Shown: one piece after another, positions 2,655 through 16,881 of the stretch
Layout of the letters: each line of letters starts with the position of its first letter
How positions within the stretch are numbered: position 1 is the first letter of the stretch
Virus record (IMG/VR): IMGVR_UViG_2565956608_000010
Location: 1-20,320 of that record
DNA from: a virus
Taxonomy: Duplodnaviria > Heunggongvirae > Uroviricota > Caudoviricetes
Length of the DNA stretch: 20,320 nucleotides
Reading direction: 5' to 3' (one strand)
Program-made: the position numbers and the translations under genes
The notes under the pieces: model-generated
Database searches by the model: none
What the model was told of the DNA's origin: nothing
What the model saw: only the letters and a program-made list of their open reading frames with translations

Positions 2655-3262
2655 GCTGCCTCACTTCTGCTGTTTCGCAGATTTTTAAGTTTCTGCTGAT
2701 ACTCCGCCTTGATGGCCCTGCACTCTTCGACAGTCCAGCGATGGCGGTTATGGTTTAATTCGATTTCGTCTACTGCTTCCTGCCCGATGCGATTAATCAG
2801 TTCGACGCGATACGGAACGAGATTTCCGCTTTTGTGCTGGTTGCACACCACGCATTGCTTGTGAATATTGCGTTCATCAAATCGGAGTTGAGGTGCCGCA
2901 GCAGTTGTCCGGTAATGTCCGGCATCCCACTGAGCAGACGTGAGCGTTCCGCACGAGATACATGGTAAGTCGCGGTCTCTTTCTCTGATGAAGGCGTTTA
3001 CGGCTTGTTGGGCTTGTTTAATCCAGTAACTGCGGGGCTTTAAGGCGAGTTTTCGAATCTTAAGTTTATCTTTCTGTTTCTGCTCCTCTCGTCGTCGTTT
3101 CTTCTCTGCTGCTTTTTCCGCTTTTTCGCGTTCTTTACTTCGTCGTTCGAGTGCTATCTTGGTTCCACACTCTGGAGAGCACCACCACTGATTAGCGAAT
3201 GCAGGATGAAACCATTCCCGACATTTATCGTTTTTACATCGTCTTCGCGCTGGTTTAGCCAT
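2651..3262 (-). CDS. ninG: NinG (Rap) recombination-associated protein, 203 aa
   Basis: Cys-rich N-terminus ([12 protein letters not shown]...WCSPECG) and central CISCG...CVVCNQHK match lambda NinG; ATG overlaps the ninF stop. Confidence 0.9.
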
Positions 3263-3425
3263 CGTCTTCTTCCTCGTGCATCGAGCTATTCGGATCGCTC
3301 ATCAGTTCTGCACAGCAGTGCTCACACACGTGAACTTCCAGCACATGCAGCTTCTGACCGCAGTTAGCGCACGTTAAAGCTCGCTCGACGCTTTCTTGTT
3401 CGTAACTTCGATTTTGGTCAATCAC
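3255..3425 (-). CDS. ninF: NinF (56 aa, GTG start)
   Basis: Manual translation gives [56 protein letters not shown], matching lambda NinF; GTG start overlaps the ninE stop (GTGA). Confidence 0.8.
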
Positions 3426-3604
3426 CTTGTTTTCCTCGCACGTTCTCTAAGCCACCGGATATCCCACAGGTGAGCCGTGTAGTTGAAGGTTTTTACGTCA
3501 GATTCTTTTGGGATTGGCTTGGGTTTATTTCTGGAGCGTTTCGTTGGAAGGTATTTGCAGTTTTCGCAGATTATGTCGGTGAAACTTCGTCGCTGTCGTC
3601 TCAT
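3422..3604 (-). CDS. ninE: NinE (60 aa)
   Basis: Internal Met of the 80-aa track ORF gives [60 protein letters not shown], near-identical to lambda NinE; ATG overlaps the ninB stop. Confidence 0.85.
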
Positions 3605-13971: not shown

Positions 13972-14070
13972 TGGTGACCGCGAAGGAATGCGGGTATGCC
14001 TTAATTTGTCCAGAGTCGAAGTATTAAATCAGCGTTATTTCCTTGGTCCATGTCCATTCTGAGGTGAATT

Positions 14071-14778
14071 ATGGATTTAAATAAATTCGATGAGCCATTC
14101 AGCCCTGAAGATATTGAATGGCGAATACAGCAAAGCGGTAAAACACGCGATGGCAAGGTGCGGGCTATGGTGCTGGCTTATGTCACGAACCGGGCAATCA
14201 TGAAACGCCTGGACGATGTTTGCGGCAAAGCAGGATGGCGCAATGAATACCGCGATATTCCCAACAACGGCGGCGTTGAATGCGGCATATCAATAAAGAT
14301 TGATTCCGAATGGGTAACCAAATGGGATGCTGCTGAAAACACGCAGGTAGAAGCCGTCAAAGGTGGTCGTTCCGGTGCAATGAAGCGTGCTGCCGTTCAG
14401 TGGGGAATCGGTCGGTATCTGTATAACCTTGAGGGAGGTTTCGCACAAACATCTCTCGATAAAAAGCAGGGGTGGCACAGGGCAAAACTGAAGGATGGAA
14501 CAGGATTTTACTGGCTCCCTCCATCGCTGCCGGGATGGGCAATCCCAGCATCAGATAACAAACCATCACCAGAAAATACCAACCAGAAATCTCTATCGGT
14601 TGACTGCGAACGAATCCTGAAAGACTTCAGCGATTATGCTTCGACAGAAACTGACAAGAAAAAACTCATCGAACGTTATCAGCATGACTGGCAATTAATG
14701 GCTGGCAATGAGGATGCGCAGGCTAAATGCGTTCAGGTAATGAACATCAGAGTTAACGAACTAAAACAGGCGGCATAA
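14071..14778 (+). CDS. single-strand annealing protein, probably Rad52/Sak-like family (235 aa)
   Basis: Segment GGRSGAMKRAAVQWGIGRYLYNL resembles the conserved Rad52-family segment; RBS GAGGTG; directly followed by ssb and an exonuclease; not similar to lambda Bet or RecT as recalled. Confidence 0.6.
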   Translation: MDLNKFDEPFSPEDIEWRIQQSGKTRDGKVRAMVLAYVTNRAIMKRLDDVCGKAGWRNEYRDIPNNGGVECGISIKIDSEWVTKWDAAENTQVEAVKGGRSGAMKRAAVQWGIGRYLYNLEGGFAQTSLDKKQGWHRAKLKDGTGFYWLPPSLPGWAIPASDNKPSPENTNQKSLSVDCERILKDFSDYASTETDKKKLIERYQHDWQLMAGNEDAQAKCVQVMNIRVNELKQAA

Positions 14779-15294
14779 ATGGCAAGCAGAGGCGTAAATA
14801 AGGTGATCATTATTGGTCGCCTTGGGCATGATCCAGAAATCAGATATTCGCCATCAGGAACGGCATTTGCAAACCTTACAGTTGCTACGTCAGAACAATG
14901 GCGTGATAAGCAAACTGGAGAGCAAAAGGAGCAGACGGAGTGGCACCGTGTGGTAATGAGCGGGAAACTGGCAGAAATTGCCAGCGAATATCTGCGAAAA
15001 GGCTCTGAGGTTTATCTTGAAGGCAAATTGCGGACAAGAAAATGGCAGGATCAAAGCGGACAGGATCGGTTCACTACCGAAGTTATCGTGGGCGTTGGTG
15101 GAACCATGCAAATGCTTGGTGGCAAGCAAGGAAGCAATGAACAGTCTTCACCTCAGCGAAATAACGGCCAGCAACAAAGACAGCAATCTCAGCAGCAGGG
15201 GAATCACAGCGAACCACCTATGGATTTTGACGACGATATACCCTTTGCGCCAGTAACTCTCCCCTTCCCTCGTCACGCTATTCACGCAATTTAA
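14779..15294 (+). CDS. ssb: single-stranded DNA-binding protein SSB with a 15-aa extension past the DDDIPF motif (171 aa)
   Basis: Strong similarity to E. coli SSB (MASRGVNKV...TEWHRVV...[15 protein letters not shown]...[12 protein letters not shown]...[11 protein letters not shown]); the ORF continues [15 protein letters not shown] before the stop. Confidence 0.9.
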
Positions 15295-15302
15295 GGACTT
15301 AC

Positions 15303-15851
15303 ATGAATCACTTAATGGTTGACCTTGAAACAATGGGCAACGGGCCATACGCGCCAGTTATTTCTATTGGGGCGGTATTCTTTGACCCGAATACCGGAGA
15401 AACAGGAGAAGAGTTCTCGGTAAATATCTCGCTTGAGTCATCAATGCGATATCGGGCGCGTCCTGACGCTTCAACGATTTTATGGTGGCTGGAACAGAGT
15501 GAAGAAGCCAGAAAATCGCTAACCAGCAACACTCAGGAGCTTTCAACGGCTCTTTCATGGTTATCTGAATTCATCATAAAGAACGCTAACCACAAATTCG
15601 TTCAGGTTTGGGGGAATGGAGCATCATTTGACTGCGTTATTCTCCGCAACAGTTATTCGCTGACAGGGCAGCCAGTTCCGTGGCAGTGGTGGAATGACCG
15701 CGACGTAAGAACAATCGTCGAACTTGGGAAGGTAATAGGATTCAACCCTAAGCGAGATATGCCATTCAAAGGAACTCGCCACAACGCGCTTGATGATGCC
15801 ATTCACCAAGCCAAATACGTTTCAGCGATCTGGAAAAAGTTAGCTAAATAA
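15303..15851 (+). CDS. DEDDh-type 3'-5' exonuclease (182 aa)
   Basis: Exo motifs VDLETMG (Exo I), WGNGASFD (Exo II) and HNALDDAIHQA (Exo III with His); RBS AAGGA before the ATG. Confidence 0.8.
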   Translation: MNHLMVDLETMGNGPYAPVISIGAVFFDPNTGETGEEFSVNISLESSMRYRARPDASTILWWLEQSEEARKSLTSNTQELSTALSWLSEFIIKNANHKFVQVWGNGASFDCVILRNSYSLTGQPVPWQWWNDRDVRTIVELGKVIGFNPKRDMPFKGTRHNALDDAIHQAKYVSAIWKKLAK

Positions 15852-15867
15852 TCAACAGGAGAAAACC

Positions 15868-16164
15868 ATGCCAGCGCCTCTGTATGGTGCGGATGACGCG
15901 CGCCGCTGTTCCGGCAATTCCGTATCGGAGGTGCTGGATAAGTTCAGAAAAAACTACGATCGGATAATGTCGCTACCGCAGGAAACGAAAGAGGAAAAGG
16001 AATTTCGCCACTGTATATGGCTTGCAGAGAAAGAAGAACGAGAGCGAATTTACCAGACATCAATCCGACCATTCCGCAAAGCCACATATACCCACTTCCC
16101 TGAACATATCGACCCGCGCCTGCGTAATTACCGCTCACGTTATGGTGCTATCAGTAATGACTGA
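15868..16164 (+). CDS. hypothetical protein (98 aa)
   Basis: ORF with RBS AGGAG 7 nt upstream of the ATG; no family recognised. Confidence 0.55.
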
Positions 16165-16174
16165 GGAATTTACC

Positions 16175-16339
16175 ATGAGAGGACTTGCATACAATCCCGG
16201 CATTCTTCCGGCAGAAATGATTATTCGCCAACGCGTAAAGCCAATGCCATCGAGAGAGGAATTGCTTAAGAGAAATTCTTTTCCGTCAGTGAATCAAAAC
16301 AAATATCTGAATGCGATGTTGCGGAGTGGGAAGAAATGA
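16175..16339 (+). CDS. small hypothetical protein (54 aa)
   Basis: Internal Met of the track ORF 16022..16339 with RBS GAGG before the ATG; stop overlaps the next ATG (ATGA). Confidence 0.4.
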
Positions 16340-16881
16340 AACAAATGTCACTAATTGAGATGGATGGATTCCTGAAAGGTAAATGCATCCCAAGCGATTT
16401 AAAGGTTAACGAAACAAACGCTGAATATCTGGTGCGTAAATTTGCTGAAGCGGAGGCCAAGTGCGCGGCGCTGGCGGCGGAGAGTGCGCTGGCTCGTAAG
16501 GCAGTTCAGGCATTCTGCGATGTTGTTGGCGACAACACTGAGATTATCTCCGAGTTGGTTGGGCAAGATGGCGTTCTGGTTATTTTGAAGGCCATGAAGG
16601 CAACAGGAAATATGTCAGCCACCGACGCTTTCCTGGCTGAAATACGTGCGGAGGCACGCAACGAGGGGATTAACTACACCGCAAGCCGTCTTGCTGCTGC
16701 GTTCAATCACGGATTTATCAATAAGTCTTTGCGTGAAGTTTTCGACGTTACACGCATGATTTTGTCAGCGAAAGAAGAGTTGGCTAATGAACCGCATCCG
16801 ATTGATGGCCTGTCCGGTGAATATGCGGAGAAATCCCTTGAAGAATGGGCGGAACAGATTCGCAAAGGAGGCAACCAGTGA
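16336..16881 (+). CDS. hypothetical protein (181 aa)
   Basis: ORF translationally coupled to neighbours on both sides; no family recognised. Confidence 0.6.

Follow-up and report, generated by a model that had tools for sequence, protein, structure and literature searches.

Why does a phage SSB, a protein that binds single-stranded DNA, carry the acidic tip of the bacterial SSBs inside its sequence, followed by 15 further residues? The free SSB tip organises replication, repair and recombination in bacteria, and is pursued as an antibiotic target. The question is raised by the ssb gene at positions 14779-15294 of a 20,320-nucleotide stretch of DNA from a tailed phage (Caudoviricetes; IMG/VR record IMGVR_UViG_2565956608_000010, positions 1 to 20,320), which as a whole is called the window. 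The original prediction, made from the letters of the window alone, described the internal tip and saw in the extension either a deliberate decoy or modification that could alter partner recruitment, or a lost stop codon or sequencing error. As described below, the window SSB belongs to a widespread subfamily with a capped tip, which is found in phages and prophages and has so far gone without remark. The gene and the segments of its product are the following.

14779-15294, plus strand: ssb, encoding a 171-residue bacterial-type SSB with a C-terminal extension (open reading frame (ORF) list, Pfam PF00436, PHROG 44)
14794-15093, plus strand: OB-fold domain binding single-stranded DNA (ssDNA), residues 6-105 (Pfam match, beta-barrel in the AlphaFold2 (AF2) model)
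15094-15213, plus strand: Gln/Gly/Pro-rich disordered linker, residues ~106-145 (low predicted local distance difference test score (pLDDT), variable)
15214-15246, plus strand: canonical acidic SSB tip, here internal, residues 146-156 (P146-F156; read from the sequence)
15247-15291, plus strand: 15-residue tail, residues 157-171 (A157-I171), with the TAA stop codon at 15292-15294

The Pfam SSB profile PF00436 matches residues 6-105 (E 2e-38) and the PHROG 44 (SSB) profile also matches the protein (E 3e-70). In the AF2 monomer model the OB domain forms a beta-barrel (pLDDT ~60-80), whereas pLDDT is ~30 across residues 114-171, which makes the end of the linker, the tip and the tail disordered. 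The model was inspected for docking of the tail on the OB fold, but the tail was merely disordered. Thus the window SSB has the OB fold, the disordered Gly/Gln/Pro-rich linker and the D-D-D-I-P-F tip of a bacterial SSB, but the protein runs 15 residues beyond the tip, which in bacterial SSBs is the extreme C-terminus. Reading of the ORF confirmed this arrangement as predicted. The predicted positions were exact except for the codon of Phe156, which had been placed near 15258, about 12 nt off: this TTT codon, the last of DDDIPF, occupies 15244-15246. The next codon is not a stop but GCG (Ala, 15247-15249). Because 15 residues come after the tip, Phe156 has no free alpha-carboxylate.

Two other explanations of the sequence around the junction were rejected. 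Programmed frameshifting to a canonical end finds an open -1 frame, and a +1 frame with a TAA codon in CCAGTAACT that gives a product ending ...DDDIPLRQ, so that neither frame yields a product with IPF at its end. A +1 slip at CCC-T (window 15250-15258, CCAGTAACT) would lead to this end, and there is no sign of its use. Overlapping ORFs (15148-15348 on the minus strand, 14978-15256 in the +1 frame) were rejected as a source of constraint because a switch between the alternative downstream genes would alter what they encode.

The tail is common. The ssb gene of the window shares 97-98% DNA identity with ssb of phages HZ41, ECP1 and Sf6, and the 45-nt tail DNA is 100% identical in at least 24 phage records. 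Among these, HK75, mEp235, mEpX2 and epsilon34 share the identical tail DNA, with SSB bodies of ~74% DNA identity to the window. Of 5,426 complete E. coli genomes, 402 contain the tail DNA, and a probe spanning the SSB-tail junction was covered in ~298 genomes (~5% of the total). A protein search with the whole SSB, that is, without selection for the tail, was evaluated for the best 120 clusters at 90% identity, which were 75-98% identical to the query. The 15-residue tail was found in ~113 of these 120 clusters, which came from E. coli, several Klebsiella species, Citrobacter and Salmonella, so the alignment with related SSBs proposed in the original prediction does show a conserved extension. 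The consensus in this set is [AS]P[VI]TLPFPRH[AT][IV][HY][AV][IL], with the core PVTLPFPRH nearly invariant. A second search, seeded with a divergent member from Tatumella, returned the tails APIGLQHPTHFIYSI, ASIGLQHPSHAIHSI, APVGLPYPRHCIYLI and APIGLQFSRHSIHAI, each of 15 residues. When Tatumella, Pantoea and Phytobacter are included, the family pattern becomes A-[PS]-[VI]-x-L-x-[FYH]-[PS]-x-H-x-I-[HY]-x-[IL]-COOH. The length is nearly always 15 across the Klebsiella, Citrobacter, Salmonella, Tatumella, Pantoea and Phytobacter relatives. By these comparisons the tail is real, old and common to several Enterobacterales genera.

This distribution bears on the simplest alternative, namely that the extension arose by a sequencing error or by a private loss of the stop codon with neutral read-through. 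Fifteen open codons after a lost stop have a chance of ~0.49 and are not unusual, so it is the conservation of the tail, not its openness, that exceeds chance. Otherwise the idea stands as an a priori possibility alone. Hundreds of complete genomes and phage isolates, independent of one another, have the identical junction, which is also conserved across genera with synonymous variation; this leaves the idea a negligible probability. A sequencing error is refuted by the frequency of the tail, its length of almost always 15 residues and the synonymous changes between genera, and a recent loss of the stop codon by an extension that is common and conserved among genera. The further suggestion that the extension might be common and functionally neutral is right as to its frequency, but conservation argues against neutrality.

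The spacing hydrophobic-x-Leu-x-aromatic, seen in all tail variants, is reminiscent of sliding-clamp-binding motifs, and a hexapeptide [PS]-[VI]-x-L-x-[FYH] could tether the phage SSB to the beta clamp of the host. The putative likeness, judged by eye, is to clamp motifs such as QLxLxL / QLSLPL and QL[SD]LF. The hallmark Gln of the first position never occurs in the tails, the last motif position is His in several lineages (GLQH), and the P-x-H-x-I-[HY]-x-[IL] end would be left unexplained. We regard binding to the clamp as very improbable.

Internal tips are not limited to this family. Among 150 representatives of SSB clusters formed at 50% identity, 16 had the tip inside the protein. The extensions past the internal DDDIPF include the short, unrelated APVPFY, APEFR, MGLGYDTARSAIYAL, SNYELRSVI and RQYQHRQLY..., several of which start with Ala-Pro; the representatives with extensions other than the 15-residue tail are P0271, P0284, P0289, P0321, P0334, P0361, P0392 and P0402. 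Internal tips with unrelated extensions in this cluster set suggest that C-terminal capping of phage-type SSBs is recurrent, and it may have arisen, or diversified, repeatedly. To judge from the sampled clusters, the 15-residue tail is the largest of the capping families.

Constraint on the segments of the protein was estimated from the ratio of non-synonymous (pN) to synonymous (pS) diversity, computed by region on 60 unique tail-bearing ssb sequences:

OB domain: pN/pS 0.18
linker: pN/pS 0.46
11-residue tip: pN/pS 0.027, with pS 0.50 (normal synonymous diversity)
tail: pN/pS 0.15, with pS 0.125

The tip is the most strongly constrained segment of the SSB, and the linker is the least conserved, with indels and without a single invariant column in the protein alignment. 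In the tail L161, F163, R165 and H166 are invariant and six further positions are at least 90% conserved. Variants of the tail DNA with up to seven synonymous changes encode the identical peptide. Between the window and a Klebsiella prophage the tail differs by three synonymous changes and two conservative replacements, the whole gene by 56 synonymous codons. Because of the low pN/pS, the invariant residues and the synonymous variants, we consider the tail to be constrained as a peptide. Thus the codon comparisons indicate that the tail is under purifying selection and that the internal tip is under even stronger selection. Conservation in this way supports the predicted deliberate, that is, selected modification, which plausibly alters partner recruitment.

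The low pN/pS of the internal tip (0.027) would also suit a pro-SSB, in which the tail is an inhibitory cap cut off after Phe156 at a conserved F/AP junction, with conditional release of the canonical tip. Residue 157 is nearly always Ala or Ser, and several of the unrelated extensions likewise start with AP. To our knowledge there is no cytoplasmic protease with F/AP specificity. The module encodes no phage protease that could take its place, and a mere cap would make the conservation of length and motif over the whole tail unnecessary. We give little credence to such processing.

Some related SSBs do stop directly after IPF, as the original prediction had envisaged for the case of an error. 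They exist mostly because an HNH-like endonuclease gene occupies the junction and takes the tail, and they do not point to an error in the window. In phages Sf6, IME10, N7, CurroJimenez and Huey the window ssb matches in two pieces with 447 nt between them, and in Sf6, IME10 and N7 the flanks around the insert are 97-98% identical to the window. In these phages the SSB ends with ...PPMNFDDSDIPF-stop. A 159-residue ORF (Sf6 gene 26) starts nine nucleotides further on and reads into the tail, which thus forms the C-terminus of the endonuclease. A second endonuclease lineage, 47% identical to the first, is located in the same place behind HK75-type SSBs ending ...MNFDDEIPF-stop, and it has the same tail. 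A probe for the endonuclease-tail junction was covered in ~107 complete E. coli genomes.

The window and Sf6 are collinear through the ATG of Met148 (15220-15222) and again from CCAGTAACT (15250), which defines an empty site in the window:

15223-15249, plus strand: empty site (putative homing site), 27 nt swapped in endonuclease alleles (net +447 nt in Sf6)

The invaded alleles replace these 27 nt by a recoded tip, a stop codon and the endonuclease ORF. An altered tip with recoded codons (DDSDIPF, DDEIPF or DDQDIPF) was present in 28 of 28 unique HNH-carrying alleles and in none of 85 unique tail-fused alleles, 83 of which have DDD[IV]PF and two YDDIPF. There are exceptions: DDSDIPF or DDEIPF also occurs in a few tail-fused proteins, which are either scars of endonuclease loss or donors of the flanking tract. 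The altered tip of the invaded alleles would give immunity to cleavage. The presence or absence of the endonuclease gene is a precise polymorphism in near-identical backgrounds, and the gene can be present or absent with either downstream gene. On this collinearity, the window has the un-invaded allele, and the IPF/APV junction is where a free-standing gene for an HNH-like endonuclease inserts.

The alternative that the tail is the native C-terminus of the endonuclease, and the SSB fusion a deletion product, was ruled out by the tail-less relatives of the enzyme and by the PHROG profile. Relatives of the endonuclease found elsewhere (Cronobacter, metagenomic contigs) lie 8-11 nt past the stop codon of a phage ssb and end a few variable residues beyond ...NKPIY, without the tail. 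The PHROG 2340 'endonuclease' profile covers residues 1-143 of 159. Since these relatives sit after ssb and lack the tail, and the profile stops before it, the tail is a part of the ssb locus. Invariant Cys pairs and an HH...C..CH..WH signature mark the inserted protein, and its AF2 model (pLDDT 94.5) again has a disordered tail. Pfam, PDB-sequence and Foldseek searches with it gave no significant match. These features are consistent with, though weakly indicative of, an HNH-like fold.

Several loci look like later stages of such an insertion. In Klebsiella phage phiKp_30 (L005 1349-1545) the endonuclease gene is decayed: only the first 8 and the last ~20 codons survive, with other sequence in place of the middle. 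Here the tail lies outside any long ORF and has non-synonymous changes (AAYAI instead of AIHAI). Chimeric ORFs combine the SSB N-terminus with the endonuclease C-terminus and tail (P0131, P0134) or the endonuclease N-terminus with an Rv2179c-like exonuclease (P0144, P0173, P0180, P0183), and by their composition look like deletions of part of the endonuclease and a segment of the neighbouring gene. The phiKp_30 remnant and the chimeras fit a homing cycle in its degeneration phase. The features expected of a homing-endonuclease cycle are thus present, with cleavage by the enzyme putative. Two viral contigs have lost the SSB body. On the minus strand of L103 (tail at ~1326) unrelated DNA directly precedes APV and there is no IPF, while on the minus strand of L077 (tail at ~3461) GC-rich unrelated DNA directly precedes a retained IPF. 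The tip/tail junction seems to be a more general breakpoint. The intact 159-residue ORF between ssb and abc2 is left unannotated by RefSeq/PGAP in most sampled E. coli genomes, for example L006 (1567-2046) and L007 (E. coli X14-3, Res13-Lact-PEB17-18; hits H122-H126).

In another reading the 45 nt would be kept as DNA or RNA, with an incidental peptide: as endonuclease recognition sequence or homology arm, as a recombination linker where mosaic modules meet, or for translational coupling to the downstream gene. The tail DNA is 100% identical among phages whose SSB bodies are 74% identical, its pS is 0.125 as opposed to ~0.50, and its distance to the following start codon is always 8-13 nt. There is a valley of nucleotide diversity with its centre on the tail, which reaches into the first ~100 nt of the downstream gene. 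Low pS and the valley indicate that, in the E. coli/Salmonella phage pool, the segment was recently homogenised as well. Co-conversion around a homing site would leave such a valley, and recombination at a module boundary would look similar. Nuclease genes have been reported at exchange boundaries in phages (PMC10448857), which would fit a role of the DNA itself. However, lineages with strongly diverged DNA (Tatumella, L157; Klebsiella, L213) retain the amino acid pattern and the length of 15 codons, the pN/pS of the tail is 0.15, and where the endonuclease ORF is broken, as in phiKp_30, the tail gathers non-synonymous changes. The next gene has its Shine-Dalgarno sequence outside the tail. 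Four tail constructs, folded as RNA, gave z-scores of -1.3 to +1.0, no better than shuffled sequences, and an Rfam search of window 14000-16500 at E<=1 found nothing, which ruled out an RNA-level function as the main explanation. Maintenance of the tail as a nucleic acid element is distinctly unlikely.

In both endonuclease lineages, only 47% identical to each other, the tail has remained in frame, as would also be expected of a C-terminal degradation tag, which sends its carrier, SSB or endonuclease, to a cytoplasmic AAA+ protease. The non-polar ends (..AI, ..VI, ..AL, ..SI) with an upstream adaptor-like segment would then keep a potentially toxic SSB or nuclease short-lived. The near-fixed distance to the C-terminus, a small and then an aliphatic residue at the last two positions of all variants, and disorder of the tail in both the SSB and the endonuclease context agree with a tag. 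By eye, its end may resemble the ClpX-type tags of ssrA (..LAA) and MuA (..KKAI). But the most conserved positions form the upstream L-x-[FYH]-P-x-H and are not confined to the last three residues, and conservation of the internal tip would be left unexplained. A degradation tag is an unlikely alternative.

The structural and evolutionary statements made so far are well supported; for the functional mechanism we infer the following. In SSB partners a pocket buries the terminal Phe of SSB and anchors its alpha-carboxylate by a basic lip, and deletion of the terminal Phe abolishes binding and is lethal (PMC10164576). By removing the free carboxylate of Phe156, the tail would weaken or abolish canonical docking of the host partners, as expected from the way in which their pockets anchor this group (PMC10164576). 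At the same time the tail would present a new, disordered linear motif anchored at the C-terminus. Recombination intermediates could then be coated by the phage SSB while host nucleases and helicases (for example ExoI, RecJ or RecQ) are not recruited, and the tail would serve as a private handle, in all likelihood for a recombination partner that the phage encodes, or for a selected host partner. Because it is so strongly conserved, the internal tip probably still works, within a bipartite motif or through intramolecular regulation. Where the endonuclease is present, the SSB keeps a canonical, though altered, free tip and the tail passes to the endonuclease. The lost carboxylate together with the new linear motif make us favour an SSB acting as a re-wired hub, in which the tail caps the tip against host partners and offers a new motif for phage recombination, with a probability of roughly 0.45. 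A broader scheme is put forward more tentatively and is doubtful as a whole. In it a naturally capped SSB would be diverted away from the host interactome, either into a private channel of the phage or into regulated turnover, which would insulate phage recombination intermediates from host nucleases. A selfish endonuclease gene homing into the DNA for the universally conserved SSB tip would toggle phages between the capped and the canonical form and take the tail peptide onto itself.

Several observations weigh against the re-wired hub. The link between the tail and a partner is a prediction from sequence. Analysis of the neighbourhood singles out no partner, as the type of annealing protein and the downstream genes vary: tail-bearing SSBs adjoin Rad52-like and, once, ERF-type annealing proteins, and a close relative, Salmonella phage 146851_sal5, has the same annealing protein without the tail. 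Viable phages such as Sf6 have a tail-less SSB, from which it follows that the tail is dispensable. Extreme conservation of the tip is not expected if the tip is merely masked. Finally, in the E. coli/Salmonella sample the pS of the tail is four-fold lower than elsewhere (0.125 vs ~0.50), so part of the apparent conservation in these hosts reflects recent spread or gene conversion.

The neighbouring genes identify the locus as the recombination module in the early-left region of phages of the P22-like and lambdoid kinds. Their order is annealing protein, ssb, 3'-5' exonuclease and abc2-type gene, in a translationally compact arrangement:

14071-14778, plus strand: Rad52/Rad22-like single-strand annealing protein, 235 residues (Pfam PF04098, E 2e-25)
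15303-15851, plus strand: Rv2179c-like 3'-5' exonuclease, 182 residues (Pfam PF16473, E 3e-73)
15868-16164, plus strand: abc2-type anti-RecBCD gene, 98 residues (ORF; E. coli X14-3 homologue; tblastn table)

The ATG of ssb abuts the stop codon of the annealing gene (TAAATG), and the exonuclease gene starts 8 nt past the ssb stop. A Rad52/Rad22-like gene lies upstream of the tail-bearing ssb in nearly all sampled loci, including those of Klebsiella, Tatumella and Phytobacter, and the order ssb-exonuclease is kept in epsilon34 and in Klebsiella and Phytobacter prophages. The abc2-type product has 2 differences in 98 residues relative to the 'phage anti-RecBCD protein' of E. coli X14-3. In general the context of the subfamily is a single-strand annealing protein gene, then ssb, an optional exonuclease gene and abc2, in lambdoid/P22-like modules. 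The annealing protein of the window (14071-14778) has the Pfam Rad52_Rad22 match, yet tblastn also ties it to true ERF proteins. This link agrees with the published remark on epsilon34 that its gp36 and P22 Erf have only the C-terminal 56 residues in common, as after a domain swap. The C-terminal domain common to the annealing protein and Erf is a candidate region for contact with SSB.

Two further loci extend this picture. The metagenomic phage L218 combines an ERF-type annealing protein with a tail-bearing SSB (ASIGLQHPSHAIHSI), and between erf and ssb it has an HNH_3-family endonuclease gene (2990-3517) that overlaps the start of ssb; this is a second site of nuclease insertion, at the opposite end of ssb. 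The early-left operon of a Klebsiella prophage also contains a homologue of the theta subunit of DNA polymerase III (PF06440; L213/L214 5461-5718), another phage gene touching the host replisome.

The tail has escaped comment. In phage genome papers and in database records the gene passes for an ordinary ssb, and RefSeq annotates the fused gene plainly as 'ssb'. The tail peptide was not found in a full-text search of 8 million papers, and the papers on the epsilon34 genome and on ETfinder do not mention it. An endonuclease homing site in the DNA encoding the SSB tip, here putative and deduced from allele comparison, is likewise previously undescribed. The capped SSB occurs in about one in 20 E. 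coli genomes and in many Klebsiella, Salmonella and Citrobacter prophages. If capping is true, this is a natural experiment in which ssDNA is coated by an SSB unable to use canonical docking. Capping could account for the way in which the recombination modules of phages (annealing protein, SSB, exonuclease, anti-RecBCD) shield their intermediates from host nucleases, and may matter for recombineering, where pairs of annealing protein and SSB set portability between hosts. An HNH-like mobile endonuclease landing in SSB-tip DNA would be a new example of selfish nucleases choosing constrained sequences and of the shaping of mosaic boundaries in temperate phages. The failure of RefSeq to call its ORF in most carrier E. 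coli genomes sampled is flagged here.

How does this locus compare with known systems? The chromosomal SSB of E. coli is alike in the OB domain, in the Gln/Pro/Gly-rich disordered linker and in the exact sequence of the tip, but it ends at DDDIPF-COOH, whereas the window SSB has 15 conserved residues beyond. Moreover, the window ssb lies in a prophage recombination operon, unlike the chromosomal ssb locus. That the C-terminus of a phage SSB can serve a neighbouring annealing protein is known from Sak4 of the P22-like phage HK620, whose early-left operon, as in the window, has an SSB beside the annealing protein (PMC5928155). The HK620 SSB is a distant homologue, however, with a free NDYPPF end and with neither an internal canonical tip nor such a tail, and its partner Sak4 is RecA-like, whereas the neighbour in the window is Rad52-like. 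In Sf6 (genes 27/26) the ssb body is 98% identical in DNA, and the 45-nt tail and its distance to the next gene are the same. The difference is that in Sf6 the 159-residue HNH-like endonuclease stands between tip and tail and the SSB ends DSDIPF-stop, whereas in the window tip and tail are fused. The Sf6 record notes merely '14 contiguous amino acids identical to E. coli SSB'.

For an endonuclease at ssb the nearest precedent is segG of phage T4, a free-standing endonuclease gene that adjoins and targets the T4 SSB gene 32 (PMC2988022). The two cases share a presence/absence polymorphism among relatives and, presumably, co-conversion of the flanks. SegG is a GIY-YIG enzyme and gp32 an SSB of unrelated type, whereas the enzyme described here is HNH-like, with putative cleavage. 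Unlike segG, the HNH-like gene sits inside the reading frame at the 3' end of ssb, where it splits off the C-terminal peptide.

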